A stretch of 64,000 bases of DNA from Candidatus Hodarchaeota archaeon. GTDB taxonomy: Archaea; Asgardarchaeota; Lokiarchaeia; Sigyniarchaeales; SOKP01. The translations under genes and the position numbers were made by a program. Under the pieces are notes generated by a model. The model did not search any database. It was not told the origin of the DNA and saw only the letters and a list, made by a program, of their open reading frames with translations. Where the stretch lies: positions 170,958 to 234,957 of the forward strand of contig JBHLKM010000005.1 of the NCBI GenBank assembly GCA_048886685.1. Direction: 5' to 3'. This document shows, piece by piece, positions 27,230 through 48,863 of the stretch (position 1 is its first letter; each line of letters opens with the position of its first letter).

Positions 27230-30200
27230 TTGGTTTTGAAATTGAAAGATCTATTAAAATCCTTTAATCTCTCTGATGATGCGATAAAAATTTATCTTAA
27301 AGGAATAGGCAAATTTCCAATTACATTATCAGAAATACATAAGTTTGTACCAAAATCATCGATTGATGATGCTAAAGAAACTATGGATGAATTAATTAAT
27401 AAAAAATTAGTTATTGTTTTAAAAACTAAATTTTCCAACATTTTTCCTCATTATCTTTTTCTTCCTCCATTCGCAGCAGTAATTAATGCTTTCTCCAAAT
27501 TAGATGAAGATCCTGTTGAGAATATCCCTCAAGTTAAAGGAAACAACTCTGTGATTGAAAAATTTCAGAATAATTTATTATATGATATTGAATTGATTGG
27601 TCAAGATTTAATAGAAATAATTTCAGCTCAATCTGAAAGTCATCAGACTACAGAGATTTTATCTGAAGTTGAGAAAAATGTCAAGAAATTCTCTCAAGTC
27701 TTATTAACTGAAGTTAATGAATTGATTGCTAAATTAAAATCCAGATCTATTGTAAATGAAATCGATATTGAGCGTGTATTGAGAGCTGTTAACCAGAAAA
27801 TTGAAGAATCTGAAGAAATAATTTCTAACATGTTTACTCAATTTAGAGAAATCATTAGTGAGATGGATTCGGCTAACATACCTACTCAGATTGAATCATT
27901 TAAAACATTTATAAGAAAATTAGGTGAATCTATTGATAAAAGAAGTAATGAAATTTTTCAGAATTCAATTTTTTCATCTTTAAATAACCTTCAAATGGTT
28001 GAACAATCATTATTTAATGTATTAGTAGATTATATTAGCAAAGATCAGATTTCTGTTGATAAACTACTTCCCCTGTACAGTATTGAAAAAATAAAAGAAA
28101 TAATTGTCTTTTTATTAGAAAAATGTAAAGAAAAATTAACCATAATCGTTCCAAATATAGAAGATTTTATACCCTTAGAGGAATTTGATTTAGAATATTC
28201 TGAAGACGCAGATTCTGAACTTTCAACAAGAGAAATAGTGCCAACTCAAAAGAAACCAATTGTTCCTTCAAAAGGTAAGCCTTCTATTAGTAAACAACAG
28301 AAAAAAGAATTATTAGACAAAATCGACTTTACAGCAAAACGAGTACCTGATTTAAAAGGATATGAGTTGAGTCATGATGTCGCTGATATTCTGGCAATGA
28401 TTTCAGAGATTAATCCTGAATCTTCGATCATTGAGAATGTCCAAGGCTGGCTAAATAGATTATTAGTCATAAGGAAATATCTTGATCAAAACACACAATA
28501 TTTAATATTAGAGGATATTGAGAAATGGAAGAAAAATTATTTAAAAATTAAGAAAGAAGAAGAACCAGAACAAGTTGAACAGGAAGATACTGAGAGTGGA
28601 ATAAATAATGGAAGAAAAGTTGAAATAGGAATGAGTTCTAATGGATTGAAAATGAAAATAGTCTCTTCGGAATCTCATGACAATAAGCATGTTAAGGCCT
28701 TGAAAAAGAAATATATTGAATATCTATGGCTTAAAAATAATAATATAGTTGCAATTGTTGGGGATGATTTATACTTAGCATTGGGCATTTATCAAAAAAT
28801 TAAAAACGATTTTAAATATGAAATTATTGGTTTTACTACATCTTTTAAACCATTCATAGAGTTGGTACAACCAAATATCTTAAAAATTATCAATGATGCT
28901 AAACCAACTAGGGAAATTCAGATAAATAAAGGATTTAATGAAATTATAGAGCATATAAATGATTATAGTGGAAAAAAAATATCAACAAAATTAAAGAATC
29001 TACTTAATGTAGCTTTTGAAAATGATGGAATCTCCCTTAATATTTTAGAATTTAAGTTATTGGTTGGTAAGCTAGAAAAGTTTTATTATCCCTTAGAGGA
29101 TGATATGAAAGTATACATAATTGAACAATTAAATAAATTAAACAAAGAATTTTCTTCATTAGAATTAATATATCCACCAGAATTTAAACCTCCAATTATT
29201 GAAGATATAACAAGCATAGAATTAGAAAAAGACGTTGTTTTAGAGGAGAAAGAAATAGAACCGCTGGATACTGAGAAAGTTAATAACCTTTTTGATCTAT
29301 TTTTAGAAAAAATTGATGAATTTAAAGGGATAGAGCTAAGGGATCAAATTGATAAATTCATAGAGGTTATTTTAAAATTGCAAGGTTATTCAAAAATTGT
29401 TGACTGGAAGAATAATTTATCTAACATAGAAGAAGCATTAGATGAACCACTTAAAGAAAAAATAAAACTAGATTTTCTTACTTGGAAAAAAGGGATTTTA
29501 AATCCGACCCTAATCAAGGAAAAAATAAAAACAGAAGAATTAGTTAATCAACCATCAACTCAAAAAGATTATATGTCTGAAAGTGAAGAAGAATATATAA
29601 GTCCTGGATTATCACAATCACAGTTTCAATCAGATGACTTAATTTCTTCAGAAACTACTAATCATAGCGTTGCACAAAAAATTGATCCATCTGAAAAAAT
29701 GAAAAAGGAATTTGATGAAATAGAGAATAATTTCACAGAATTAAATGGTGTTGATATTAGTAAAAAAATGCAAAACCTCGTTGATATAATTTTAGAAACT
29801 GAAGGGTATTCAATGGATCTTAAAGATATCAAGGATTGGATAAATAAACTTAAAAGAATCAGAAAACCACTTGAAGATGAGATTAAAGAAGATTTTGTAT
29901 TATCCTTTTTCAAATGGAAAGAAAAATATGTAAAAGTAGACGCAAACAACCAGGTAATAGATTTTGAACCTTCTTTTGATAGTTCAGAAGATACACAAGA
30001 TGAGTTTGGTAGTATAAGCGGAAGTGGTCTAAGTGGTAAAATTGAGAGTCTAATTCAAACCACTAGCAATTCTACAGGGATTAAATTAAGTAGTGAATTA
30101 CAGGATATATCAGATATTGTTTTACGGTCTCATGGTGCTGTAGCTGCCAACGTGATTAGACAATGGATTAGTAAATTAAGATCTATTAGAGATCTCTTAG

Positions 30201-30262
30201 AAGATGAAATCAGAGAAGAGTTTCTCGAAGAATTAGAAAAGTGGAAAGAGAAATTCACATAA
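27230..30262 (+). CDS. 1010-aa protein: TrmB-like wHTH, coiled coil, PLD-like domain and five ~65-aa helical repeats
   Basis: LLKSFNLSDDAIKIYL...ELINKKLV; KEKLTIIVP; recurring G..(I/L)S...W...L....L(E/D)...KW unit. Confidence 0.6.
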   Translation: MVLKLKDLLKSFNLSDDAIKIYLKGIGKFPITLSEIHKFVPKSSIDDAKETMDELINKKLVIVLKTKFSNIFPHYLFLPPFAAVINAFSKLDEDPVENIPQVKGNNSVIEKFQNNLLYDIELIGQDLIEIISAQSESHQTTEILSEVEKNVKKFSQVLLTEVNELIAKLKSRSIVNEIDIERVLRAVNQKIEESEEIISNMFTQFREIISEMDSANIPTQIESFKTFIRKLGESIDKRSNEIFQNSIFSSLNNLQMVEQSLFNVLVDYISKDQISVDKLLPLYSIEKIKEIIVFLLEKCKEKLTIIVPNIEDFIPLEEFDLEYSEDADSELSTREIVPTQKKPIVPSKGKPSISKQQKKELLDKIDFTAKRVPDLKGYELSHDVADILAMISEINPESSIIENVQGWLNRLLVIRKYLDQNTQYLILEDIEKWKKNYLKIKKEEEPEQVEQEDTESGINNGRKVEIGMSSNGLKMKIVSSESHDNKHVKALKKKYIEYLWLKNNNIVAIVGDDLYLALGIYQKIKNDFKYEIIGFTTSFKPFIELVQPNILKIINDAKPTREIQINKGFNEIIEHINDYSGKKISTKLKNLLNVAFENDGISLNILEFKLLVGKLEKFYYPLEDDMKVYIIEQLNKLNKEFSSLELIYPPEFKPPIIEDITSIELEKDVVLEEKEIEPLDTEKVNNLFDLFLEKIDEFKGIELRDQIDKFIEVILKLQGYSKIVDWKNNLSNIEEALDEPLKEKIKLDFLTWKKGILNPTLIKEKIKTEELVNQPSTQKDYMSESEEEYISPGLSQSQFQSDDLISSETTNHSVAQKIDPSEKMKKEFDEIENNFTELNGVDISKKMQNLVDIILETEGYSMDLKDIKDWINKLKRIRKPLEDEIKEDFVLSFFKWKEKYVKVDANNQVIDFEPSFDSSEDTQDEFGSISGSGLSGKIESLIQTTSNSTGIKLSSELQDISDIVLRSHGAVAANVIRQWISKLRSIRDLLEDEIREEFLEELEKWKEKFT

Positions 30263-30714: not shown

Positions 30715-32922
30715 TTATATTTCTTTAGGAAAAATGACCAGTTCAGTAAGTTCATTTACTTTCATTAATTTCCTATTAATGAAAATCCTGACTTTCTCAG
30801 AAGTAATTTTAGGATTATTCATGAATAACTCTTGTACAATAATATGGCATTTTTTTCCTTTTTTTGCCAATTTTTCATGAATAGGATTATTTTCATTATA
30901 AATGGGAATTGGAAACATAAATGGTCTTTTATGAATATGTCTTGAACTTTTTATTTGCTTTATCTTTTTCGATAAATTAGGGGTGTTTAAAATCGCCGAT
31001 AAATAATAAGCTTCTTCTTCTGATTCAGTAGAATAATAATAATTTTCAGATCCGACAATAATAGTTTGATCTTCATTATTAATGACTGCTGCTTTTAAAT
31101 TAGAGCCACTTGCATTGTATACTGTAAGAAAGGATTTGTTATTAACTTGTTTATGCAATTTATTCCAATAATTCAAATTATCATAGAGAGTATCAATTTT
31201 ACTTGTCACTTTCTTATTTGCTTGGTAAATAGTGTTCATTTCATTATAAAAACTCTGAGCTTTTGGATATTGTTGAAGATAGTCAAGATCAAAATTAAAT
31301 CGAGTATTGATAGGTAAGAATACATCTTTTAATTGTTTTAAGTGAAAGGGGATAAGGTCTATGTTTAAAAATGTTTTAAAGTGAAACTTATCTTCAATTT
31401 CTTTATTTTTGAAAGGATGTAACCATTTTTCTTTAGCTCTGGATAATATATCAGGATCAGAATCGATTGTGAGATACCCATTTTTCTTATTTTTAATTTG
31501 AAAAAATATAAGTGTTCTCGGAACCAATGTGGCTCCCTGATAGAATTTCTTTTTATATGGGCTGTTCTGTAAATTATTTAACATCTTTAATTCATGAATA
31601 GGCATAATTAATTTCGCACCATTACCGTTATCATCGATTTTTAAACTTGAATATGATGTTTCCTTGATTAGCTCTGATTTATTATTAAAGATTTTTGTTT
31701 TAATGGGATATCTTTTTGTGATCGGTATGTAATTGTCTTTACCAATATATTCTGCTTTCAAACAAATATGTTCTACATTGAAAAAATAACTATCCGGAAA
31801 GTCCCAAATTTCTAAATTTGCATTAAATGAATAAAATGCTCGAAATTTGTAGCAATGATCCCCGTTTAATACGCTTTTAGGCATAACAAAAAATATCTTA
31901 CCCCCATTCTTTAAAAAATAAAAGGGAATTGCATAGAAGAAAATTCCTGCCAATTCTATATGCGTTATGTATTGACTTAATGGTTTAATCCTTAATAGAT
32001 TTGATAATTCACGAATTTTAATTTGGTATGCTTTATCGAATAAATCCTTATATGTTAACCATGGGGGATTACCTATAACCAAATCAAATGAATTAAATAT
32101 GTTATTCAATTGTAGATCTATTTTATTCTTACAATCATCTGGAAATAAAGAATCACAGAGGAAGACATTAATCTCTGGGAATTCCCCTCTTTTGAATTTA
32201 AAAAACTCAAGATAGATTAAAAGCATATTAACCTTTGTGGTAATAATTGCTAATGGATTAACATCAAATCCAAAGACGTTATTAATTGCCTTAATCTTAT
32301 TGGAAAGAGAATTTTTTGAATCAAGAATTTTAATAATGGTATTAATTAAAAAATTTCCCGAACCGCAAGATGGATCCAAAATTTTTAACCCAAATTCATA
32401 AAAATCCTCTAGCATTTTAGATACAAGGTGTGAAGGAGTAAAGAATTCCCCTCTTTTATGTCTTATGTTAGAAATAAATATATGTTGATAAAATTGACTG
32501 AAAATGTCTTGTTTTTCGGTTATAGGGTTTTCAATTTCATTATTTATTTTGTTAAGTATTTCTTCTTTAACTGATGTCCAAAAAAAGTATTTATATTCGA
32601 ATATTTTAAGTTTTTCAATTTCATTTTCTATAGGATTATTGAATATTTCTTTAAAATTGAGACCCTCGATAAAGCTTATTTTGGACATCACTAATATCTT
32701 CAATAAATGAACAAAATAGGTATGTTTTAAAAAAAGTTCAGAAGAAATTTCTTTACCATAAATATTAATAAATATTTTCTTCCATTTTTTAAAGTTAGGT
32801 TCGAAATTTACCTCAGAGATAGATCTCTCCTTAAGGAATTTCATAAATTCAGTATAAATCTCTGAATGTACGCCAAATTTTTTATCAATAATTTCGGAAT
32901 TTATTAAATTTTTGATTCCCAT
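30715..32922 (-). CDS. N-6 adenine DNA methyltransferase with C-terminal target-recognition region
   Basis: GEFFTP, LDPSCGSGNF, GFDVNP, FDLVIGNPPW. Confidence 0.9.
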   Translation of the reverse strand: MGIKNLINSEIIDKKFGVHSEIYTEFMKFLKERSISEVNFEPNFKKWKKIFINIYGKEISSELFLKHTYFVHLLKILVMSKISFIEGLNFKEIFNNPIENEIEKLKIFEYKYFFWTSVKEEILNKINNEIENPITEKQDIFSQFYQHIFISNIRHKRGEFFTPSHLVSKMLEDFYEFGLKILDPSCGSGNFLINTIIKILDSKNSLSNKIKAINNVFGFDVNPLAIITTKVNMLLIYLEFFKFKRGEFPEINVFLCDSLFPDDCKNKIDLQLNNIFNSFDLVIGNPPWLTYKDLFDKAYQIKIRELSNLLRIKPLSQYITHIELAGIFFYAIPFYFLKNGGKIFFVMPKSVLNGDHCYKFRAFYSFNANLEIWDFPDSYFFNVEHICLKAEYIGKDNYIPITKRYPIKTKIFNNKSELIKETSYSSLKIDDNGNGAKLIMPIHELKMLNNLQNSPYKKKFYQGATLVPRTLIFFQIKNKKNGYLTIDSDPDILSRAKEKWLHPFKNKEIEDKFHFKTFLNIDLIPFHLKQLKDVFLPINTRFNFDLDYLQQYPKAQSFYNEMNTIYQANKKVTSKIDTLYDNLNYWNKLHKQVNNKSFLTVYNASGSNLKAAVINNEDQTIIVGSENYYYSTESEEEAYYLSAILNTPNLSKKIKQIKSSRHIHKRPFMFPIPIYNENNPIHEKLAKKGKKCHIIVQELFMNNPKITSEKVRIFINRKLMKVNELTELVIFPKEI

Positions 32923-32980: not shown

Positions 32981-33526
32981 TTACTTTCTCATAAATGTTG
33001 GAAGCATGAAAGAAAAAATCTCTGCAATCTTCCTCAATTTTGCTTTCTCTTGTATAGTTGTGATAATTAATACTGATCTTGATAGCTCTTCTCTATCCAA
33101 AGAACCTCCAGAATAAATTGCTTGATTAGTATTGAACACTAATAAAAATCTCACATTGGGATTATTAATTATACTTATCCCTTCGGTAACCTTCAAATCA
33201 TCATAAATAGGTCGAAGGTTTTTTGGTAAATTTCCTCTATCATTTGTGATTAAAAGTACTGGAATCCCCTTTTGAGAAACTTTTTTTAATTCTTTAGAAT
33301 AGAACTCATCTATTTTCGGTGTAACAATGTTTAACTGCTCTTTAGTTGACGCAATCAAATTTAACAGTTGATCATTGAGCACATTTCTTTTCTCTAACCC
33401 ACCAGAAGATTCTATGTTAAACATACCTACTAATGTCATTATTTTATTTTCTAATGAAGCTATTTCCTGCTTCAAACGCTTATTTTCTACGCGTAACTCG
33501 AGTAATCGATCGGAAATCTCACCCAC
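32981..33526 (-). CDS. coiled-coil + PLD-fold protein lacking the HKD motif
   Basis: LIASTKEQLNIVTP, KGIPVLLIT, VRFLLVFNTNQAIYSGGSL in place of HxKxxxxD...GSxN. Confidence 0.65.
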   Translation of the reverse strand: MGEISDRLLELRVENKRLKQEIASLENKIMTLVGMFNIESSGGLEKRNVLNDQLLNLIASTKEQLNIVTPKIDEFYSKELKKVSQKGIPVLLITNDRGNLPKNLRPIYDDLKVTEGISIINNPNVRFLLVFNTNQAIYSGGSLDREELSRSVLIITTIQEKAKLRKIAEIFSFMLPTFMRK

Positions 33527-33713
33527 CCACCGTTTATGTTAACTTATTCAACTCAAAACATGTTTCCATTCATTATATTTATTTTTCTTAATTTCTTTTT
33601 AAATAATGAATTTTACAAGTTTGATATTTTAAATTTAATTCTTGTATTAATTAATTAAAATTTACTTTATAAATATTTTTTATTCCATATTTTTTTATAT
33701 TAAAGTTTTAAAT

Positions 33714-36305
33714 TCAGGAAATTAATTTTTTCCAGGGTTGTCCAAAGAGTAAAAAACTTGATACTGCTAAACTGCTTCTTAAGTCAATTCTTGCTACACC
33801 CTCTTTCTCTAATGAGTCTTTAAATTCTTGTTGCACAATTTCTTCCATCTTCTTTGCTATGCATTGTTGTCGAGCCTTAAGAAGTGATACTCCTTGACTA
33901 TTATTATTAAATAGATTAATAAAAAAGAATGAAGTAATATCTTTAGTTTCTTCGTTGAAAAGAGGGTATGTTCTTGAAATAATTCCAGTAAATTTGGTTT
34001 GATCGAATTGAGCAACGATCTCCCCAAATGTTTTGAGACCATTCTTTAGTTTTTGACCTTCTATATCAAAAATCTGGGCGTTAAAAAATAACAGAGGATT
34101 TAAATTCGAGTTATTTTGACTTAAAGTATTATTTATTTCTCTGAATGTAATGATTTCACTATCATTAACTAGCAAGTAGCTATCATTTGGGCTCCATTTA
34201 GAATAAAATATATTTCCTACAAATATAATAATATGATAAAAATCTTTTAACAGATGGTCAAAAAAATTATCTCGTGTCGATTTTGAGCCAATAAGCGTAG
34301 TAATTTGATTAACTTTGTCGGCATTATTAAAGAAATTGATAATATAGTTTACTTCATTCGCACCGGCAGTAAAAGGGTATATTAGTTCTTTTCTTTTCAA
34401 TTCATTATTCCATTTTAAAGGACTTGTAGAATTTATAGATTCAATTATTAAAACATTGAATTTTCCATTATCTTGCTCAACTACAGATTTAATTAAAGAT
34501 GCCTCTTCAAAAGAAATACCTCCAAGTGGTATTTCACCAATTTTATATCCAATAGAATATTTTAACAAGAAAAAATTATTATCGTATATCAAATCAAAAG
34601 GAATCGTCATATTATCTATAACAAAATAAATCTGAGGTATAGTTTTTAGACTTTCAATTTTAAAAGATTTAAAAAAATTTCTTATTAATTTTGGTAAAAA
34701 AATATATAATAATTCCCCAAATTCGTTAAGGTTAATTGTAAACTTTCTCTTTTCAGTCTCATAGAAAAGCTCATTATATATCTCTAATATTTGAGTATCA
34801 TTCCAATATTCATTAGTGATAATACCCTCTAAAATTTGATAATCTGTTGAAAAAATACGATACGATATCATCCCTTTAGAATTTATTCTTAGAATCATAT
34901 TATTAATAGAAAAACCTTCATTGTCTAATCTAAGAGAATTTATGCCGTCTTCAAATGAATAAATCTGACTTTTTAAAGGTTCTACTTCATTATATAAGGA
35001 TACAACATCTTTTATCAATTTGTTAAAATCCTTTTCAAGATAAAATATTATTTTTTGCGCTATTTTAAAATTCTTTTCTTCAAAAAGAGCACGATAGAAC
35101 ATCATTCTCCAAAAATCTCTTTGCTCTAAAGAGAAGAACATAGACTTGAATTGCCAGAGTAAATTACAGGTATAAAAATAATGAAAGATTTGAGCGCTCG
35201 TTTGAGGTATTTTTAAATGGTTATCTAGTTTTTCTAACGACTGTAATAAATACTTTTTCTCTTTCATTTCAACAAATTTTTTGCAGGCTTCAACCCATAG
35301 TTCAATTAAGATGTTGTCGTAGGAAAGATCTGTTTTATACATGAATAAATCTTCTAAGAAATCATAGATTTCAAAGGCTATTTCAAAGCGATTTCTATTA
35401 ATTGAAAAATCAATGAATTTCCGTATATAGGTAATTGCATCCCCATAAGATTGAAATTCTTGCATTTTTGAGAAAATATTCCTAATAATAATGATAATCC
35501 AGGAATATTCTCCTATGTCATTCAAATAATTTATCAGTTCCTCAAGATCAACCAAAATGGTACTAAAACTTCTTTCGTTGATCGCGATTCTACTAATACT
35601 ACTAAATTCGTTTTTTAAATACTGTGGAAGTCGATTGATCAGAATTTTATTTATAAATCTCACAAATTCTGAGGAATCTTCCATAAGATTATATTTAATA
35701 CAAACGTCCTCTAAAATCATATAAATGAATAACGTTCTCTTACTTGGTTCTAATTTTAACACAGTTTTACCTAACTTTTCCATACTTAAATGAAAAAATT
35801 CTGAAGGCGCTACAGATTTCCTTAGAAACATCAGTAAAATTTGTAATTCTATTAGCTTCTGGAATTCTTCTTTTTCATGTAATTTTACAGAAAAGGAATT
35901 AATGAATTTTGTTATTCCTTTCTGAGATAAATCTTCAATTTTTATAAATTGCTTAAGAAGGTTTATCCCAAAATTATTAAATAAATAAAAATCATCTAAG
36001 TTTGCTAAAAATGAAAAGAATCTTTTATACGCATCAATATATCTGATTAAATCAATTTTAACTTCTCCTTCTTCTCGTTTAACAAGCGAATTTAAATATA
36101 TCCACCAAGAGTTCGAGATTATCATTAATAATTGATGCTTTTTTTGGATGTCTAACCATTCATTTTTTTCTATATCCATTCTTAAATTTTCAAGTAAATT
36201 TGAAGCCCATTTATGATTAGCACCAAATAATAATTTCCGTGCTATTATTATTTTTTTTTGAAAGTCTGTTAAAAATTCCTGTTTTATATCTAAACTTACT
36301 GTCAT
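33714..36305 (-). CDS. helical-solenoid protein with C-terminal CHAT (caspase-like) domain, catalytic residues substituted
   Basis: FGELLY..LP, IPFDLIYD..FFLLKYSIG, GANEV, HIIIFVGN (vs HFAGH), LFFNAQ (vs FLNAC), SLLKAR, FLLFGQP. Confidence 0.8.
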   Translation of the reverse strand: MTVSLDIKQEFLTDFQKKIIIARKLLFGANHKWASNLLENLRMDIEKNEWLDIQKKHQLLMIISNSWWIYLNSLVKREEGEVKIDLIRYIDAYKRFFSFLANLDDFYLFNNFGINLLKQFIKIEDLSQKGITKFINSFSVKLHEKEEFQKLIELQILLMFLRKSVAPSEFFHLSMEKLGKTVLKLEPSKRTLFIYMILEDVCIKYNLMEDSSEFVRFINKILINRLPQYLKNEFSSISRIAINERSFSTILVDLEELINYLNDIGEYSWIIIIIRNIFSKMQEFQSYGDAITYIRKFIDFSINRNRFEIAFEIYDFLEDLFMYKTDLSYDNILIELWVEACKKFVEMKEKKYLLQSLEKLDNHLKIPQTSAQIFHYFYTCNLLWQFKSMFFSLEQRDFWRMMFYRALFEEKNFKIAQKIIFYLEKDFNKLIKDVVSLYNEVEPLKSQIYSFEDGINSLRLDNEGFSINNMILRINSKGMISYRIFSTDYQILEGIITNEYWNDTQILEIYNELFYETEKRKFTINLNEFGELLYIFLPKLIRNFFKSFKIESLKTIPQIYFVIDNMTIPFDLIYDNNFFLLKYSIGYKIGEIPLGGISFEEASLIKSVVEQDNGKFNVLIIESINSTSPLKWNNELKRKELIYPFTAGANEVNYIINFFNNADKVNQITTLIGSKSTRDNFFDHLLKDFYHIIIFVGNIFYSKWSPNDSYLLVNDSEIITFREINNTLSQNNSNLNPLLFFNAQIFDIEGQKLKNGLKTFGEIVAQFDQTKFTGIISRTYPLFNEETKDITSFFFINLFNNNSQGVSLLKARQQCIAKKMEEIVQQEFKDSLEKEGVARIDLRSSLAVSSFLLFGQPWKKLIS

Positions 36306-36326
36306 TAAATTGTTATTTCCTTATTT

Positions 36327-37514
36327 TTAATCATTATTTTGAATGGTGTTCCTTATTTCTTCTCCTGCGGAGAGTTTAGGGTTTTGTTCCCATCCTTTAC
36401 TTAATTTGCCTTGTGCCCATAAAACACTCGCTCCAACCCAGCTAATATTCTCTCTGCCTGAAACTGCCATTACATTAATTTTTTCTTTAATTCTTTCTGA
36501 GAAGAACTTTGAAATCTCAATTTTTAATCTCTTTTCAAATCCAGGGATCAAACTCCCGCCACCTGCGAGAATAATATTCGATAATAATTCTTCCCAATTT
36601 TCTCGATCCCATGTACGGATGACCTTAGCAATTGCTTCGGGTAAGCCAATATAATCAATATGAATTATTAATGGATTGAATAGAGGCTCTGAAATAAGAA
36701 ATCTTTCTGAATTAATTTCTAAACTAGACCCATCAGGTAGATCGATATTACTTGTGTACTTTGTAAAACCATCCTTTATTCGCCTGATTTCCTCCTCTGG
36801 ATCTAAAACACATAACGATAATTTATCTTTTATTTCCTTTGCAATGATATGATCAAGATAAATTGATTTTCCAGATCTAATTTTGGTTAAAAGTAAGTTG
36901 AGCAGATAATTGGTTATATCTTTACCCGCAACTGGATAAGTATCTCTTGCTATAACATTAGAAAAACCATGTAAAAATGATGTAATGTATGTATTTTCCT
37001 CGCCTATACTTACGATTACTCCACTTGTTTTCCGGAATGTAGATATTATTCCTTGACTTTCAGATATAAATAGAATACTTGGAAAATCAAACACATTAAA
37101 AAAAATATCTCTCAATTTAGTTTTCTCTAATTCAGGCATGAAGAAGGGTGTTATTATGATAATTGGTTGTTTAAATTGATTATTTTCCGATATTTCTAAC
37201 TCTTTATAATGATGATAGAAGAATTTCATCAAAATTGTAAAATTGTTTTCTTTTTTAAACTCATGTACTGTAAGTATATTGGAATATTTTAGCGCTTCAT
37301 GACCAAATAACTGACCCTCTACATTTTTTTCCTCCATAAATATATCTTCAAGACCATCAATTACATCTGAAGTAAAGAGATAATCGGTATTATCAACGTA
37401 GACACTAGGAGCAATAATATCTGGATAATCATTTCCTGCCCATCCCAATCGAAAAAAATTATTCCCTATATCGAGAATTAATGGACGTAATTGATTATTT
37501 TTTTCAGATGACAT
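36327..37514 (-). CDS. Asgard actin-related protein (divergent)
   Basis: LILDIG...LGWAG.DYP...PSV, AGKDITNYL, AKEIKDKL, LPDG...I.SERF..SEPLFNP, NIILAGGGS, SWVGAS. Confidence 0.92.
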   Translation of the reverse strand: MSSEKNNQLRPLILDIGNNFFRLGWAGNDYPDIIAPSVYVDNTDYLFTSDVIDGLEDIFMEEKNVEGQLFGHEALKYSNILTVHEFKKENNFTILMKFFYHHYKELEISENNQFKQPIIIITPFFMPELEKTKLRDIFFNVFDFPSILFISESQGIISTFRKTSGVIVSIGEENTYITSFLHGFSNVIARDTYPVAGKDITNYLLNLLLTKIRSGKSIYLDHIIAKEIKDKLSLCVLDPEEEIRRIKDGFTKYTSNIDLPDGSSLEINSERFLISEPLFNPLIIHIDYIGLPEAIAKVIRTWDRENWEELLSNIILAGGGSLIPGFEKRLKIEISKFFSERIKEKINVMAVSGRENISWVGASVLWAQGKLSKGWEQNPKLSAGEEIRNTIQNND

Positions 37515-37564
37515 ATTTTTCTGATTGATTTTAATTAATTAGAACTTATAGAAAAAAGCGCTAT

Positions 37565-38413
37565 TTAATACTTCATTTCATGAATTAAATCGTCTGTAAC
37601 TCTTTTTAATTGATACTCCTTAATTTGCAATTCTAATAAACCTAAAACTCTTTTAAATTTTCCAGACATAGATTCTATGTCAACTTCTGCCACTTTTTCA
37701 ACTTCATCGCGTTTAACTTTGAATAGCTCTAACTGCGATTGGATCTTTTTATATTGATTATTAATAGATACAACTAAATCTTCTGTATTTTTCTTGGTTA
37801 TTTTACGCATTTTTCTTAAAATAGCTAATATATTAGAAATAGAATTTTCCCATCTCTCATATCTCTCATTATAACTCTTTAACAATTCCTCAAAAAATAT
37901 CGTTAATTTGGCATAAATGTTATCTTTTTTAATAGAGGATTTTGTTTTTTTCTCTGGAGGTGTTGGAGCTATTTCTTCTTTAACTCCTATGACATCTTTT
38001 TCAACGGGAGGTACTGTTGAAGCTTCTATTTGAATCTTCGGAGGAAATGCAGTTTTAGGTTTTTCCTCGGTCATTAATGGTTTCGATTTTTCTTTGGATT
38101 CTGGGGCGACAATTTTCTCTCGTTTCTGGGATGGTTTTCTTTGTGCTAAAGGGACATCCTCTAAAGCATAAGCTTCTGCTATTTCACTTCTACTTTCGTG
38201 AGATAAGTGAGGTGTAATTTTTTCCTCTCCTTCTTTCTTAGGAAGCACAAATCCCTTTCCTTCGGTAGCCTCCTCCATTAAGCTCTGCAATGTTGTTTTT
38301 GTAGTTTTTGTTGAACTCAAGGCGTCATTTAAGGAATACCCTTGAATATCCCCTATCTCTTCAACTTCTTCAACAACTTTTTTTTTCTTTTCTTTTTTCT
38401 TCTTCTTCCCCAT
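37565..38413 (-). CDS. hypothetical protein: disordered Lys/Glu/Pro N-terminus, coiled-coil C-terminus
   Basis: Poly-Lys start, PPK/PPV/PTPP motifs, about 120-aa heptad-rich end. Confidence 0.75.
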   Translation of the reverse strand: MGKKKKKEKKKKVVEEVEEIGDIQGYSLNDALSSTKTTKTTLQSLMEEATEGKGFVLPKKEGEEKITPHLSHESRSEIAEAYALEDVPLAQRKPSQKREKIVAPESKEKSKPLMTEEKPKTAFPPKIQIEASTVPPVEKDVIGVKEEIAPTPPEKKTKSSIKKDNIYAKLTIFFEELLKSYNERYERWENSISNILAILRKMRKITKKNTEDLVVSINNQYKKIQSQLELFKVKRDEVEKVAEVDIESMSGKFKRVLGLLELQIKEYQLKRVTDDLIHEMKY

Positions 38414-38454
38414 AAAATATACCTATATACTAAATAAAATTCTAATTTATGAAT

Positions 38455-38862
38455 TTATTCGAAAGGTAAGATATCAACATTAAGTGCCTTTCCGTTTTTT
38501 ATCAAACCTTCTCTTAATTCTTCCATTGTAATATTTTTAGGAGTTGGACTAAGTACCGTCCAAATTGCTGTTTTCGATTTTTCTAAAATGATACTCTCTC
38601 CCCACATTAAAGAAATACCAAATTCTCCAAAAACTGTTGCTATTTTTGCTAAAGATCCAGGCTCATCGACCATTGTTATCCTAAATTTAATAGGTTTATC
38701 TGCCTTCGAAATTCCTACTGGTGTTATTCGTATTTCCTTTGTTTCTGAATCGCTTACAAGCATTAGTTGGGAATCCGTTGTAATACCAAGATGTTTCCTA
38801 GTTACTAATGGAAGTACAATTCTCCCTCGATTATCTATGGATATAATTTTTACATCCTTCAT
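38455..38862 (-). CDS. AbrB/MazE-type DNA-binding domain fused to ACT domain
   Basis: IDNRGRIVLP..RKHLGI; DEPGSLAKIATVFGEFGIS. Confidence 0.88.
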   Translation of the reverse strand: MKDVKIISIDNRGRIVLPLVTRKHLGITTDSQLMLVSDSETKEIRITPVGISKADKPIKFRITMVDEPGSLAKIATVFGEFGISLMWGESIILEKSKTAIWTVLSPTPKNITMEELREGLIKNGKALNVDILPFE

Positions 38863-39014
38863 AGTTCTTAATATATTACTATTTCTTTTAATAATTACAA
38901 TATGGAAATAATTTTCTTATAAATATTAACGAAATTATTATTAATAATTTTAATGAAAACTTTCCAGAAAAGAAGTGTAAAACAGAAATAATATAAAAAA
39001 TTAAAATATAATAG

Positions 39015-41114
39015 TTATTCTTTATGAGCTTTTAACTTTACAGTAAGATCTCGAGCTCTTTTTGAATACCATATCAATAATTCTCCTGCATCTTCAGGCT
39101 CAAAATATTCTCCACCGCACAAAGACGCTGCTCGTATCATTAATTCACGATCTGGATTTCCAAGACCAACGATGTAGGTAACAACATTGGGATTATCAGA
39201 TAATTTTTTAATTTCACTTAAAAATAGCTCAGGATCCGTTGGAATTCCATCTGTCAAAAGTACTACCATATTTGGACTATCTGGACTGATCTGCTGGAAG
39301 TTTGCTAACACATTATTAGCTTGTACCATTGCAGCACCCATATTTGTGGCCTGTCCATATGCATTTCCAATTCTGTCAACAATCATACGTGCAGCATCCT
39401 CAAGAACGCCTTTTTTACCACTAGCGGAATCCATATAATAACTATTACCAAATGGCAAAATTTGTGCCTCGTCAGCAAATCGTATTACTGCTACTTTTTC
39501 TCCGAAACCTCTTCCAACCTTTTCGCTTAAAAATAAAACTGCAGCAAAAGCAGCAGATATCCGTCGGGGTATATTAATGCCATCCTTGAAATGTTTTAAG
39601 AACTCTTGAATTTCTCGAGATTCCATAGCCGCTTTTATTCCTTCAATAGCAGGAGCTATGTTTGTTACAAACACATCTCTTGCCATCATACTCCGGCTAA
39701 TATCTATTATTAAAATAGCGTTAAAGGGAACTAATCCTACTGGACTTAAAGTTAACGTAGTATTTTCAGTGACACTTGCAAAAATATCTCCAGTAAGATC
39801 AGGAACAGTCTCCAAAACCGAGCAAGCAATGTTTACAGCATTCCATCTTAACTTTATTCCCTTAAAGATAACGTAATTTGATATCCAGCTTTTCATAGAT
39901 GATACATTTTCTCGTGCAGTGCTAATAGTTTCCCAAATTGCTTCTCCCGATATTGGTGAAACACCCAAAGAAATATTCTGTAAAGGAATAATCGTTCTTT
40001 GATTCTTAGAAACTTTTACTTCAAAGCTTCCTATCCCAGAAGCTTCTAATATTTCACTATCAATGATAATTACATCATCTGGAGTTGATTCTAAAACATC
40101 TACTTTTCCAGCACCCATAGCTCCAGTTAATTCATCCTCGAACGCCAGAATATCATTTTGCTGAATTGAGAGAGAAAGCTGAGTTCTTGGGCTCACCAAT
40201 GCATATCCCATTAAATTAGGTTGGGATTCAACCTGTAACATTAATTCAGATACTTTTTCTATGGGGGGTTCTGTTGAATACACGACTACTTGGTCAGATT
40301 GAATATTGGTATCTTCATAAGTATCAAAACTCATCTTTATATCAGTCATAGCGATATTTGTTTCATCAATCCGAGCCGATCCCATAGACCTTGTTAAAGG
40401 ATCTTCCCAAGCTATTAACATTCCTCGACCAAGACCTAATTTTTGTATAATATTAGGACTTAATTGAACTCTTCCTCCTTCAATATTGTTATCCAATACA
40501 GGTTTAAGAATTATACCACGTTTTTGACTCACTAACGTATTGATATCGATTTTATTAGGGTAAGGTTCAACGGGAGCTGCTGGCTCAATCGAAGGTTGTG
40601 CTGAAGGTAATGGAGATAAGGAAGGCGGTGGTGCAGGAGCAGGTGGTGTTGGCGTGATTTGAGGTGTTGGTGTAAGCTGTCTGATTGGTTGAGGTATTGT
40701 AGTAGGTTGAGGAACTGGGGCTGGCTGAATCTGTGGAGGTGGTGCAGGTTGTGGAGTTGGTTGTTGTGCGGCTGTAGGTTGAGGAGGGAATGATTCAGGA
40801 GCGAACTGTTGTGTAGGAACTTTAGGAACTTGTTGTTCAAGTGAAAGGGAGGCAGCAGCACTAGCAAGACGCACAGTTAGCTCTACTCCTGAAAATTGTA
40901 AATCTTCAAGAATATTCTTTGCGAATTGACCCGCAAAATCTAACATGTCATTTGATATTTCTACGACAGCGACTTTTTTTAAGTTATTATCTAAATTAAT
41001 AATCTCTACTGAATCTCCATTTTTAACGCCGAGTTCATCTGCATTAGATTGACAAATTACGACTTTATTAGATATTTCATCACTAGCATCTACAAAAAGT
41101 TTAAGTTCTGCCAT
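39015..41114 (-). CDS. Cdc48-N-like double-psi barrels, proline-rich linker and vWA domain
   Basis: ADELGVKNGDSVEI, IQKLGLGRGMLI, LSLSIQQNDIL; P/Q-rich linker; MIDAS DISRS, ATNMG, LTDG. Confidence 0.78.
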   Translation of the reverse strand: MAELKLFVDASDEISNKVVICQSNADELGVKNGDSVEIINLDNNLKKVAVVEISNDMLDFAGQFAKNILEDLQFSGVELTVRLASAAASLSLEQQVPKVPTQQFAPESFPPQPTAAQQPTPQPAPPPQIQPAPVPQPTTIPQPIRQLTPTPQITPTPPAPAPPPSLSPLPSAQPSIEPAAPVEPYPNKIDINTLVSQKRGIILKPVLDNNIEGGRVQLSPNIIQKLGLGRGMLIAWEDPLTRSMGSARIDETNIAMTDIKMSFDTYEDTNIQSDQVVVYSTEPPIEKVSELMLQVESQPNLMGYALVSPRTQLSLSIQQNDILAFEDELTGAMGAGKVDVLESTPDDVIIIDSEILEASGIGSFEVKVSKNQRTIIPLQNISLGVSPISGEAIWETISTARENVSSMKSWISNYVIFKGIKLRWNAVNIACSVLETVPDLTGDIFASVTENTTLTLSPVGLVPFNAILIIDISRSMMARDVFVTNIAPAIEGIKAAMESREIQEFLKHFKDGINIPRRISAAFAAVLFLSEKVGRGFGEKVAVIRFADEAQILPFGNSYYMDSASGKKGVLEDAARMIVDRIGNAYGQATNMGAAMVQANNVLANFQQISPDSPNMVVLLTDGIPTDPELFLSEIKKLSDNPNVVTYIVGLGNPDRELMIRAASLCGGEYFEPEDAGELLIWYSKRARDLTVKLKAHKE

Positions 41115-41343
41115 ATTTATTCATTAATTTTACTCTATTTTTTAATTTAATATAAGTGATGTAGATTAAAATTTCTATCAATTAATCTTTAACAGTCTTT
41201 ATTAATAATAAACTAATATCAGTATAAGATATTTATCAAGAATTGATAAACTTATCCATATAAATAAATTTGTGCGAAAAATAATTAAAGAAAAAAAAAA
41301 AGAATTATGATTTAAGTAAAATTTGTTTTCAGATTTAACCTTA

Positions 41344-41469
41344 TTATTGTTGTACTGCTAGTATTTCTGCCTCAGAAACCATAAGATCATACTTATAAAT
41401 GTATCCCTCAATTACATGAAATCCTGCCAAAAATCGGGTGATATATGTTAATGCTTCCTCTAAAGACAT
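41344..41469 (-). CDS. unannotated 41-aa protein
   Basis: Manual translation MSLEEALTYITRFLAGFHVIEGYIYKYDLMVSEAEILAVQQ** with double TAA; coding-like composition within AT-rich flanks. Confidence 0.55.
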   Translation of the reverse strand: MSLEEALTYITRFLAGFHVIEGYIYKYDLMVSEAEILAVQQ

Positions 41470-41579
41470 ACATTTATGTTAAAAAAACATGATTTCTTTA
41501 CTAAAATTTACACACAGAAATAGAATGTAAAGTAAAGATTAAGTGAGAGAAAATGATGAAAAAATGAAATTTTTTAACT

Positions 41580-41966
41580 CTATTTGGGATATCTTTTACT
41601 TATTTCACCTGCATAATATCTGAACACCTTTACAACTTTTCCGAGTTCAGGCATTTGTCTGGATGCGCCCATTAAGAAAAATCTGCCAGCAGCACTGAGT
41701 ATAATAAAACCATTATCGCCACGTAAAATTACCTCCATCATATTATTATAACCGAGAGAATTTATCGCATCATCTCCAGATTGGACAACCACTGCGCTCA
41801 AACTTGAGAATAAATCAGGATCAATAGCATATCCTGGAATTGCGCTAAACGCAAGACGGAGCCCTTCCCGTGTGATTAAAGCTAAGGCTTCTAAATCGGA
41901 ATATTCAGTTATACTAGATAAAAATGTCGAAAGAGAATGCGCTTCTTCTGGAGTTAATTCAGCCAT
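41580..41966 (-). CDS. Roadblock/LC7 (MglB-like) protein
   Basis: LEALALITREGL, FSSLSA, EVILRGDNGFIIL, PELGKV. Confidence 0.88.
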   Translation of the reverse strand: MAELTPEEAHSLSTFLSSITEYSDLEALALITREGLRLAFSAIPGYAIDPDLFSSLSAVVVQSGDDAINSLGYNNMMEVILRGDNGFIILSAAGRFFLMGASRQMPELGKVVKVFRYYAGEISKRYPK

Positions 41967-42098
41967 AATGAATTAAATTTTTTTTTATTCAATTAATAAT
42001 AAGTAAAAAATTTAGACTTAAAAAATTATATTTTGCGAATATTTGAAATTTTAAACTTCTTTAAATAAAATAAGAGAAATTAAATTGAAAAAATTTAC

Positions 42099-42938
42099 TT
42101 AACTACCTTCTAATTGTTGTTTAATTTGATCTTTTAATAACTCTCGTTTTGATTTTCCTTCTACTGGAGTAGATGGTCGGCCAGTACGTTTAAGAAACTC
42201 TATTGCTAATATCTTTCCCTGTTCTGACAAAATTCGAGGGCTGTAATTCTCAGCGAAGAAGATTCCCTCAGGGATCGAACCTACTTTCGAGATTTCTTTA
42301 GTAACCTGCTTTTCCCCTAAGAATTGTTGTACTTTTTCAACGACAGAATAAGCTTGGTTTCCAATTATTATTAATTCTCTTTCAAAACCAGTAGGTATCT
42401 TAATTTCTTCTAATTTCGCCATAATCTCTTGAAAATCGATTTGAGTCTCCTCTTGCATATATGCTGCCATCGAATCGTCTCCTCTATATAAAGGACCTGC
42501 ATTTTGTGCTGCTAGTGTTTTACTCCCTGCAATATTCATTCCGTTAGCGGGTTCTGGAGCTCCAAAAATATTCCTTTCCCTCAATGGATGAACGCTTGGT
42601 GGAGCCATTGGTTCACCTTTTATTTCTTTAGCAATTCCCGCTTTTGTTCTTCCACCAATAAGATTTATAAATTCAGCATCCTCATCACCCTCGTCAAGAG
42701 GTATTACACTATAATGCATTCCCACTTGACCACGAATTTCTTGAGATCTTTTCGCACCAATAAACTTGGATCTAACACTACTTTTAACACCCTTCCAAAG
42801 ATAAACCTTTCTAGCATCATCAGCAACAAGGACATAACACTCGTCAGTTTTTAACATATCCTTAATTGAACCTTCAGTTGTCAGTTCGGTTGTTGTTCCA
42901 TCTGGATTAATAAGAAACAATTGCGTTATTTTAATCAA
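42099..42938 (-). CDS. single gelsolin-domain protein with C-terminal extra domain (1DGelX-like)
   Basis: LKTDECYVL, KVYLWKG..SS..SKFIGA, LDEGDEDAEF. Confidence 0.85.
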   Translation of the reverse strand: MIKITQLFLINPDGTTTELTTEGSIKDMLKTDECYVLVADDARKVYLWKGVKSSVRSKFIGAKRSQEIRGQVGMHYSVIPLDEGDEDAEFINLIGGRTKAGIAKEIKGEPMAPPSVHPLRERNIFGAPEPANGMNIAGSKTLAAQNAGPLYRGDDSMAAYMQEETQIDFQEIMAKLEEIKIPTGFERELIIIGNQAYSVVEKVQQFLGEKQVTKEISKVGSIPEGIFFAENYSPRILSEQGKILAIEFLKRTGRPSTPVEGKSKRELLKDQIKQQLEGS

Positions 42939-43155: not shown

Positions 43156-44721
43156 TTAAAGATTAAATATTTCTTTTATAGCCTTATTAATATTGTTAAT
43201 CATATCGACTGCAGTAAAACGCGTTCCAATGTTCTCTTTACAATATTCACCAATAATACCATTAAGGAATGCACCAGAACATGCTGATTTAAATAGATTA
43301 TTATCTGTAGCTAAGAAAGCAGCACATAATCCAGCTAAGACGTCACCTGTACCACCTATTGACATTTCTGGACAACCTGTGCGATTAATTTTTAGTTCTT
43401 TCCCATTGCTTATATAATCATAGGGGCCTTTTACAAGGAGAGTAAAATCATATATTTTCGCTAACTTTAATACTGCTTTGCTCCTTTCTTCAATCTGGTC
43501 ATAGGGAGGTAATTCAATACCAGTCATTATTTCTAATTCCCCTTCATGTGGTGTTAAAATAACTTGCTGACCTTTCAATATTTCAAGATGATTTTTAACT
43601 AATTTTAAAGAATCAGCATCAAGTAAATATGGCTTCTTTTCTTGATTGAGTTTTTTCAATAGATTTACTAATAATTCTTCAGTTTCCTTTTGCAATCCTA
43701 ACCCAGGTCCTATGACTACAGCGTTCGACCATTCAATCAATTCTGAGATTTCATTAAAGGAATTCATATTTAACCATTTACCTGGGCTTGTTCTAACAAT
43801 CATGTTTGGGGAAAAATTTCTTATAACATCTCCAATAACCTCTGGAACATAGGTAATAACCAAATCAATTCCAAAATTAATTCCTGCTAGCGAAGAATAT
43901 GCAGGAGCACCAGAATAATTTTTGGAACCTCCAATAACAAGTATTCTTCCAAATTGTCCCTTATGATTATCAATATTTCTAGTTTTTAGGGTTGGAAATA
44001 AATCACCTCTTCCTACGAATATCGACGCCTCAAAGGGGACTCCGATGGATCTAATTATGATTTTTTTTATATAATCGCTTTTAATATCTAATCCTTTTTT
44101 AATTCGATGGAGTGCTACAACTAAATCTGCTCTCACAGCCTTATGAACCACTTCTCCGGTATCTGGATTCATACCAGAAGGTAAATCTATTGATACGACA
44201 TTTATTTCGCTTTCCTCTCTCAATTTATTTATAACGTCGATAGCTGTAGAAATAGGTTCTCGGATTTTTCCAGATATTCCTGTGCCTAATAATGCATCGA
44301 CAATTAAACTTAGATTCTTCTTATCTTCTCTCAATAATCTTATTTTTTCAATTTCTGTTGAATCACGTATTATTATCGTTTTAACCAAATAATTAATTTT
44401 GTTCTTAATTGCATCCCAATTGAATCGTGAAGCCATAGTTCTTATTTTTTCTGGAGTCCCAACCAGGATTACTAAAGATTTGATATTAAATGCACTTAAA
44501 TGTCTTGCAACTACAAAACCATCTCCCCCGTTATTTCCAGTACCACAAAAAATCGCAACAGTTGACTTATTACTAAGATTGTATCTTCGTACAATTTCAT
44601 CCGCAATAGCGTATCCAGCACACTCCATTAAATGAATTAAGGGAATTCCCAACCATTGAGCATTATTATCGGCTATAGTAACATCTTCAGCCAAAATTTT
44701 TTCAGAATTAAATCTCTCCAT
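43156..44721 (-). CDS. nnr: bifunctional NAD(P)H-hydrate epimerase/dehydratase
   Basis: LMECAG, CGTGNNGGDG, DALLGTG, DLPSG, HKGQFG, GPGLG, LTPHEGE, GGTGDVLAG. Confidence 0.95.
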   Translation of the reverse strand: MERFNSEKILAEDVTIADNNAQWLGIPLIHLMECAGYAIADEIVRRYNLSNKSTVAIFCGTGNNGGDGFVVARHLSAFNIKSLVILVGTPEKIRTMASRFNWDAIKNKINYLVKTIIIRDSTEIEKIRLLREDKKNLSLIVDALLGTGISGKIREPISTAIDVINKLREESEINVVSIDLPSGMNPDTGEVVHKAVRADLVVALHRIKKGLDIKSDYIKKIIIRSIGVPFEASIFVGRGDLFPTLKTRNIDNHKGQFGRILVIGGSKNYSGAPAYSSLAGINFGIDLVITYVPEVIGDVIRNFSPNMIVRTSPGKWLNMNSFNEISELIEWSNAVVIGPGLGLQKETEELLVNLLKKLNQEKKPYLLDADSLKLVKNHLEILKGQQVILTPHEGELEIMTGIELPPYDQIEERSKAVLKLAKIYDFTLLVKGPYDYISNGKELKINRTGCPEMSIGGTGDVLAGLCAAFLATDNNLFKSACSGAFLNGIIGEYCKENIGTRFTAVDMINNINKAIKEIFNL

Positions 44722-48305: not shown

Positions 48306-48863
48306 TTGGGAGAATCTGAGCAGGATGAAATAGAATTGGCTTTTAAGATATGTGTTTTTGGCGATACCGCGGTCGGAAAAACGTCCTTAGTTGATCGTTA
48401 TCTTACAAATGAATTCCATGAAAATATTCAAGCAACTCTCGGTGCATCAATTCACATTAAATTCATGCCAGTGAAGAATGGAAAAATAACGCTTCAAATC
48501 TGGGATTTTGGAGGTCATCAAAATTTTATGTTCCTTGTTTCCTCCTATGCGAAAGGTTCTTCAGGAGCAATTTTTATGTTTGACCTTACAAGTTTTAAAA
48601 GCTTAAAAAATTTAAATAATTGGTTAACAGAATTTAAGAAAATATCAGGAGTCATTCCTCTTATTTTGGTGGGAAATAAATTAGATCTTGAACAAGAAAG
48701 GGTTTGTAAAAAGGAAGAAGCTTTTGATTTAATGAAATCATATAAATTCTTTAATTATGTTGAGTGCTCTGCTAAAACTGGAGAGAATATACAATCTGTA
48801 TTTAAATTGTTATTACTAGAAATTTTATACAAAACTGGACGTAAGCACGTAATATTGCTTTAA
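48306..48863 (+). CDS. Rab-like small GTPase
   Basis: GDTAVGKTS, ATLG, LQIWDFGG, GNKLD, ECSAK. Confidence 0.93.
   Translation: MGESEQDEIELAFKICVFGDTAVGKTSLVDRYLTNEFHENIQATLGASIHIKFMPVKNGKITLQIWDFGGHQNFMFLVSSYAKGSSGAIFMFDLTSFKSLKNLNNWLTEFKKISGVIPLILVGNKLDLEQERVCKKEEAFDLMKSYKFFNYVECSAKTGENIQSVFKLLLLEILYKTGRKHVILL

Follow-up and report, generated by a model that had tools for sequence, protein, structure and literature searches.

Eukaryotic complexes that contain actin-related proteins (ARPs) include the Arp4/5/6/8 modules of INO80/SWR1 and dynactin with its Arp11. In the Thermoproteales, crenactin, which is the main actin and forms filaments, is encoded in a cluster with arcadins (PMC5173319, cited in PMC7613921). 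Among Asgard archaea, UYP47647.1 is one of four actin homologues of Lokiarchaeum ossiferum, with transcript levels lower than those of Lokiactin, and the available portions of the paper assign it neither a function nor partners and do not describe its gene context (PMC9834061). Here we analyzed a 64,000-nucleotide stretch of DNA (the window) from a Candidatus Hodarchaeota archaeon (assembly GCA_048886685.1, contig JBHLKM010000005.1, positions 170,958 to 234,957), in which nine consecutive minus-strand open reading frames (ORFs) at window positions 32981-42938 include a divergent ARP gene. The original prediction had read these ORFs as a single nutrient-responsive system assembled around the ARP. 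Its ORF coordinates and gap lengths were as claimed, and its domain calls held when compared with Pfam, with structure matches and with an AlphaFold2 (AF2) model of the CHAT protein. The ORFs, together with the housekeeping gene upstream, are as follows.

43156-44721, minus strand, NAD(P)HX epimerase/dehydratase (Nnr), housekeeping gene upstream of the gelsolin gene
42099-42938, minus strand, gelsolin-domain protein, 279 aa, module A
41580-41966, minus strand, roadblock/LC7 protein, 128 aa, module A
41344-41469, minus strand, 41-aa ORF, neither module
39015-41114, minus strand, Cdc48N and von Willebrand factor A (vWA) protein, 699 aa, module A
38455-38862, minus strand, AbrB-ACT protein, 135 aa, loose neighbour
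37565-38413, minus strand, coiled-coil (CC) protein, 282 aa, module B
36327-37514, minus strand, ARP, 395 aa, module B
33714-36305, minus strand, solenoid-CHAT protein, 863 aa, module B
32981-33526, minus strand, pseudo-PLD protein, 181 aa, module B

The cluster very probably consists of two separate modules of Loki-type Asgard archaea, which are inherited apart and lie side by side in this family. Module A comprises the gelsolin, roadblock and Cdc48N-vWA genes, and module B the CC, ARP, solenoid-CHAT and pseudo-PLD genes. Approximately 120 loci were taken from three families of the order (f1, the family of this genome; f2, the sister family; f3, a third family) and from other orders and classes, and adjacency was counted in informative loci only; these counts describe rather than test, since related genomes are not independent. 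Within module A, the gelsolin and roadblock genes adjoined each other in 35/35 f1 loci and in each of the five f2/f3 genomes examined, and the roadblock and vWA genes did so in 33/36 f1 loci. For the remaining junctions the counts, listed as f1, f2 and f3, were 31/49, 0/2 and 0/1 for vWA-AbrB; 45/51, 2/10 and 1/1 for AbrB-CC; 54/55, 5/10 and 1/1 for CC-ARP; 54/56, 6/6 and 1/1 for ARP-CHAT (61/63 in total); 53/54, 6/13 and 1/1 for CHAT-PLD; and 41/51, 0/9 and 0/1 for PLD and the DNA methylase gene that follows it. The weakest junction was exactly that between the vWA and AbrB-ACT genes, which was broken in 18 of the 49 f1 loci. Eight genes occurred in window order in most f1 genomes. In three closed f2 genomes (G049, G054 and G043) the gelsolin-roadblock-vWA trio was contiguous yet 315, 306 and 127 kb, respectively, from the core, and AbrB-ACT was 224-499 kb from it; we therefore read these as two order-wide modules which are neighbours in this family only. 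Scattered orthologues, which the original prediction had named as evidence against itself, were thus found for the gelsolin, roadblock, vWA and AbrB-ACT part, and a single nine-gene system is contradicted.

The order CC-ARP-CHAT-PLD was kept in all three families at 22-46% identity, with changing flanking genes, and L. ossiferum is among the species that have it, its ARP being UYP47647.1. The gap between the ARP and CHAT frames had a median of 23 nt, and in several loci the frames overlapped or nearly touched. Full-length CHAT orthologues were confined to the order, and the CC protein was found, among the genomes searched, only in the three families. Of 398 Asgard genomes, 128 had the PLD gene; all of them belong to this class, and within the order the gene was single copy.

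ARP and CHAT were both absent from genus g2 (three genomes, one of them closed), from genus g5 (two genomes) and from genome G184, and genome-wide profile searches found no orthologue of either elsewhere in these genomes. The CC gene adjoined the PLD gene in g2 and g5 (12-117 nt). In G184 the ARP gene was gone and a C-terminal CHAT stub with stops lay between CC and PLD (L067:13169-13786), which from its sequence looks like a deletion caught late. A tree of CC and PLD needed three changes in 200/200 bootstrap trees and had the carriers interleaved, so that ARP and CHAT were lost three times independently. All three losses removed both genes and spared CC and PLD, and neither ARP nor CHAT was seen intact in a genome that had lost the other. 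In the rearranged G052, CC and PLD have moved, yet ARP was still followed by a CHAT N-terminus at the contig end. The only intact pair that was separated had six ORFs (3.8 kb) between ARP and CHAT (L032:8200-12034). Five further genomes (G007, G011, G016, G027 and G240) lacked ARP, CHAT, PLD and vWA by these queries and were left out of the co-loss count because the whole block is probably unassembled or deleted. The co-loss and the G052 junction show ARP and CHAT behaving as a single unit; CC and PLD make up another, which can stand alone. It is likely that ARP and CHAT act as one functional unit, and the behaviour of their genes somewhat favours direct binding between the two proteins. A prediction of the ARP-CHAT complex (ARP 9-374; CHAT 1-232 and 464-863) scored 0.66, as against 0.69 for a control in which the C-terminal piece had been exchanged, and weighs neither way.

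The ARP matched the Pfam actin family (PF00022, 154 bits against a cut-off of 27) and its best structure matches were actins. The genome has four actin-family genes, of which Lokiactin lies on another contig; L. ossiferum likewise has four actin homologues and the same gene order around UYP47647.1. The quantitative PCR primer for UYP47647.1 had an exact match in the syntenic actin gene of closed genome G054 (6,035,313 bp, same order), and the profile score was 383 as against at most 190 for other actins. Primer match, synteny and profile score together indicate that the ARP is the orthologue of UYP47647.1. Residues were tallied over 61 orthologues; those of the nucleotide pocket were preserved and those for hydrolysis were not. 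D15, G17, G171, K229, G318, W359 and S363 were kept, whereas the actin sites of the second P1 Gly, Gln137, Asp154, Gly158 and His161 were replaced or variable: the Asp154 site was N in 43, S in 8 and D in 7, and the Gln137 site was E, D or H (E in 43/61). The gelsolin-binding cleft was altered (S, A or T at the Tyr143 site; Q, R or K at the Gly146 site), the D-loop carried an insertion, and the C-terminal helices of actin were swapped for a variable tail. With 25% identity to this genome's Lokiactin, with P1 GxG-K, Gln137, DxGDG and His161 not kept and with the C-terminus replaced, the protein falls outside Lokiactin. Set against established actin biochemistry, this residue pattern suggests a protein which would bind nucleotide, hydrolyse it poorly and form no filaments. 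Another of the actin homologues of this genome, at C5:47630-48574 outside the window, is an actin-related protein of 507 aa; it exceeds the other three in length, and its orthologues in relatives have 500-550 aa.

No Pfam match was found for the CHAT protein. Its AF2 model (pLDDT 81) contained a helical solenoid (residues 5-447), a pseudo-protease domain (465-600) and a caspase fold (614-863), and it matched Csx29 (7y9x, Z 18.2), separase (5fc2, Z 16.1, rmsd 4.2 over 283 residues) and DdvA. The His-Cys dyad was absent, with Asn698 and Gln744 in the catalytic places; among 61 rows the His site was N in 58 and the Cys site was Q in 51 and Cys in none, and the sole row with His belonged to a distant paralogue of CHAT that is not part of the module. 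N698 and Q744 were strongly conserved, and so were residues of an inserted hairpin (N625, P629, W632, F645). Csx29 of the TPR-CHAT (Craspase) systems, separase and DdvA, all of them clan CD protease folds, share with the module-B protein the arrangement of solenoid, pseudo-protease and caspase fold; the module-B protein differs from them in lacking the dyad and any CRISPR or cohesin context, and in having an actin relative as the partner gene.

The CC protein had a Lys-rich, variable N-terminal half and a conserved C-terminal helical or coiled-coil domain (approximately 165-282), and gave no useful match in Pfam, PDB or Atlas and no known family. The PLD protein had an N-terminal coiled coil and a single putative PLD-fold domain, with matches to PLDc_2 (E 8.5e-4, below cut-off) and NucT (E 0.003) and an Atlas features score of 0.89, and the HxKxxxxD (HKD) motif was absent from all aligned orthologues. 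Catalytic residues were replaced in all three enzyme folds of module B (ARP, CHAT and PLD), and the replacements were themselves conserved. In other orders of the class the PLD gene stood with a longin-like gene, a coiled-coil gene (350-410 aa) and a small-GTPase fusion (525-690 aa) (L057, L059, L061, L062, L064), and PLD paralogues followed a giant protein of up to 2,400 aa near vWA and MPN-like genes (L058, L060, L062, L063). These neighbours hint at a GTPase or trafficking setting for the PLD family.

AbrB-ACT (Pfam MazE/AbrB, with a weak ACT match) headed module B in f1, f3 and g5, the last without ARP. In some lineages it probably acts as a regulator encoded at the start of the module-B transcript, without being a fixed member, and it may regulate that transcript with no tie to actin. 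In four RNA-library runs of one L. ossiferum study, contigs spanned the core and three ended near the same upstream place; such contigs cannot show a transcript and may hold DNA. A promoter and terminator scan gave counts at chance level, its model being bacterial and the host archaeal.

On these grounds we favour, with the balance of probability modestly on its side, the two-module reading in which module B would be a non-enzymatic protein complex. In such a complex the ARP would bind nucleotide, hydrolyse it poorly or not at all and build no filaments of the Lokiactin type. The solenoid-CHAT protein would hold the ARP, with the dead caspase fold as a binding surface, and the CC and pseudo-PLD proteins would form a pair of helical adaptors, encoded on the same transcript and able to persist without ARP and CHAT. 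By analogy with nuclear ARPs and dynactin Arp11, the likeliest job would be that of a docking or capping platform. The eukaryotic ARP complexes resemble module B in a divergent actin fold with a degenerate hydrolysis site and a dedicated partner; no subunit homology with module B was found, and the comparison is one of analogy only. The crenactin-arcadin cluster offers a further parallel as an archaeal actin gene clustered with partners, but in this genome Lokiactin, the main actin, lies outside the cluster and the partners of the ARP are pseudo-enzymes; a Pfam scan of the window proteins gave none of arcadins 1-4, arcadin profiles not having been run. That module B has a role at the Lokiactin cytoskeleton is rather doubtful.

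Several points weigh against the non-enzymatic complex. Conserved order can be passive, and is weak by itself because the same families also keep Nnr beside module A; for that reason the case for module B rests on co-loss. Adjacent genes may in turn be deleted together for physical reasons, there were three events only, and G184 keeps a CHAT stub. A slow ATPase activity of the ARP is possible, since D15, G17, K229 and G318 are kept and E stands at the Gln137 site in most orthologues, as in MreB-type ATPases. A published Lokiactin co-immunoprecipitation speaks for the reading, its text listing profilin, five gelsolins and an ARF but not an ARP (PMC13716822); that text is, however, an incomplete list.

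The proteins of module A appeared to have a history of their own. The gelsolin protein had a single gelsolin domain (residues 1-96; Pfam E 0.0025, below cut-off; Asgard gelsolin structures at E 6e-10) and an uncharacterised C-terminal domain. In the thorarchaeal gelsolin 1DGelX the domain X is predicted to be a coiled coil (PMC7444086); in the module-A protein only the gelsolin domain was confirmed. The genome has at least five gelsolin-like genes, this one included. The roadblock protein matched PF03259 (Robl_LC7, 28.3 bits against a cut-off of 23), and no GTPase gene stood beside it in f1, f2 or f3 loci, unlike in GTPase-roadblock pairs of the MglAB or Rag-Ragulator type. Both are ordinary Asgard signature proteins. 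The trio was present in g2 and g5, both without ARP, and module A is for that reason independent of the ARP, contrary to the proposed tie between the trio and actin. The gelsolin of module A would more likely act on Lokiactin than on the module-B ARP. Nnr and the DNA methylase were used as controls for passive synteny. Nnr lay directly upstream of the gelsolin gene in 32/34 f1 loci and in G049, G054, G043 and G037, and it travels with the trio in f3 as well, so the linkage of the trio may be partly passive; g5 keeps the trio without Nnr, which speaks against a purely passive linkage.

The vWA protein (Pfam CDC48_N and VWA) had three double-psi barrels, a disordered Pro-rich linker (88-185), a Cdc48-N second lobe and a vWA domain, ending at residue 699, and its metal-ion-dependent adhesion site (MIDAS) was intact (D471, S473, S475, T590, D622). 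The linker was indeed Pro-rich (34% Pro), as had been claimed, but its description as polyproline is doubtful with a longest Pro run of 3. Pro runs were 2-5 long overall and none was found outside this class; a polyproline link to profilin was rejected as unsupported, the Pro runs being short and variable. Relatives of the vWA protein were present in 247/398 Asgard genomes, with shorter forms (one Cdc48-N domain and vWA, no Pro-rich part) across the phylum. In other orders and Asgard classes the family stood beside a GCS2-fold ligase with intact motifs, an amidohydrolase, or both (L109, L110, L112, L124-L127, L131, L132, L138, L139); in this genome the ligase and amidohydrolase pair is on contig C20 (18784-23877, outside the window). 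The recurrence of those neighbours makes the vWA protein look more like an adaptor of a ligase and amidohydrolase module than like an actin scaffold. As such it would be a metal-site adaptor, with the GCS2 ligase and the amidohydrolase as its oldest partners, and the three together could possibly form a write/erase module for an amide modification. The orthologue in g2, a genus which lost ARP and CHAT, was strongly diverged (L111:7403-9712, genome G043), with 23% identity as against 53-58% in sister genera.

The top Foldseek match of the vWA protein was DEPDC5/Iml1 of GATOR1/SEACIT (E 1.3e-11, 421 columns, rmsd 6.8, 11% identity). Its architecture matches the NTD-SABA part of DEPDC5/Iml1, that is, a Cdc48-N-type domain followed by a vWA fold, and differs in the absence of SHEN, DEP and CTD and in the intact MIDAS; no NPRL2/3 or Rag gene is in the cluster. 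The vWA domain alone was closer to TFIIH p44, ITIH and Rpn10 (Z 20-23), and DEPDC5 was outside the top 50 by Z, a list filled by matches to the vWA domain alone. PF12257 did not match the window vWA gene and IML1_N gave E 0.2, a weak match, in 1/34 family members, so that homology to DEPDC5 at the level of sequence was not reached with these profiles. Where the Asgard literature names DEPDC5, the portions available report only NPRL2-like proteins. In genera g8 and g9 a longin-like gene on the opposite strand came right after the vWA gene (L109:12802-13446, L110, L132); it is lineage-specific and relevant to the GATOR1 comparison, NPRL2/3 being longins.

Other explanations were weighed against the reading of two modules with a non-enzymatic module B. 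One extends it: three pseudo-enzymes would form an ARP complex whose separase/Csx29-like scaffold keeps the ARP in place to cap, anchor or nucleate Lokiactin filaments, a functional forerunner of eukaryotic ARP machines, and separately the Cdc48N-vWA family would be the archaeal root of DEPDC5 in GATOR1. We consider this unlikely. Similarly unlikely is that module B is a switch of the TPR-CHAT type (Csx29, DdvA), with the ARP as a nucleotide-state sensor that reshapes the solenoid and the dead groove gripping a peptide uncut, for example the disordered half of the CC protein, in a securin-like manner. Such a switch agrees with the closest folds, with the strong conservation of N698, Q744 and the hairpin residues, and with the longin, coiled-coil and small-GTPase fusion genes found with PLD-family genes elsewhere, but it has no output domain, the CC protein stays intact after CHAT loss, and the ARP switch residues are not conserved.

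It is more improbable still that the genes share no function, being an old operon of unrelated, dispensable genes under slow rearrangement in which ARP and CHAT were lost together only as neighbours. Contiguous deletions do take out neighbours, and Nnr-gelsolin-roadblock-vWA shows unrelated genes linked over the same distance; against this, each loss took the same two genes and spared the same two, neither member of the pair was seen to outlive the other, and the very short ARP-CHAT junction outlasted the G052 rearrangement that moved CC and PLD. Last, the nutrient-responsive complex of all eight real genes (actin, gelsolin, roadblock, Pro-rich vWA protein and ACT sensor) is very improbable, for although the gene order in f1, the presence of both modules in most of the order, a DEPDC5-like vWA protein beside the roadblock gene (the sole hint of nutrient sensing, and one that concerns module A only) and a second gelsolin gene after PLD in one g5 genome speak for it, the distances in closed genomes, the broken vWA-AbrB junction, the remoteness of AbrB-ACT in most f2 genomes, the persistence of module A without ARP and CHAT, the long outer gaps with their T-runs, the altered gelsolin cleft of the ARP and the short, class-restricted Pro runs speak against it.

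The gaps from the gelsolin to the PLD gene were, in order, 132, 110, 229, 152, 41, 50, 21 and 187 nt, and the co-oriented run exceeded nine genes, reaching Nnr on the upstream side and, downstream, a DNA methylase and a glyoxalase, so the nine-gene borders are arbitrary. The 41-aa ORF shared 54% identity with the final part of a longer ORF on contig C2 and had no match at the same place in any relative's locus; it is a local remnant, the 3' end of a gene from a small family whose longer members lie elsewhere in the genome. The N6-adenine methylase (Eco57I/MmeI-like; 30715-32922, minus strand) directly follows the PLD gene, a linkage unusually stable for a gene of restriction-modification type. 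Downstream of it, and kept there in the genus, is a 1010-aa protein with no Pfam match (27230-30262, plus strand), the N-terminus of which resembles a TrmB-type winged helix by eye. A Ras-family small GTPase (48306-48863, plus strand) lies 5 kb from the cluster and is not kept adjacent in relatives.

A literature search, in which subscription papers were thinly covered, found no paper describing either module, none on Asgard archaea with a CHAT domain and caspase, and none on Asgard archaea with GCS2, amidohydrolase and vWA, in agreement with the original prediction, in which the assembly is not known to have been described as a system. What stands of that assembly is the conserved unit of the ARP with a dead caspase fold and a dead PLD; the nine-gene nutrient-sensing system is not supported, while the four-gene core is real and open to testing in a species that has been cultured. 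Taking gelsolin, roadblock, vWA and ACT out of the ARP complex saves wasted experiments, and a second question is raised, namely the kinship of the Cdc48N-vWA family with DEPDC5. Judging from the structural model, module B would be an archaeal instance of a separase-like architecture put to use with no protease activity. Asgard archaea carry several ARPs besides Lokiactin, for which the available portions of the literature give no function or partner; because module B gives one of them a co-lost partner in a cultured species with deposited proteomics (PXD074767) and Lokiactin co-immunoprecipitation data (PXD068820), the function of an archaeal ARP becomes directly testable.

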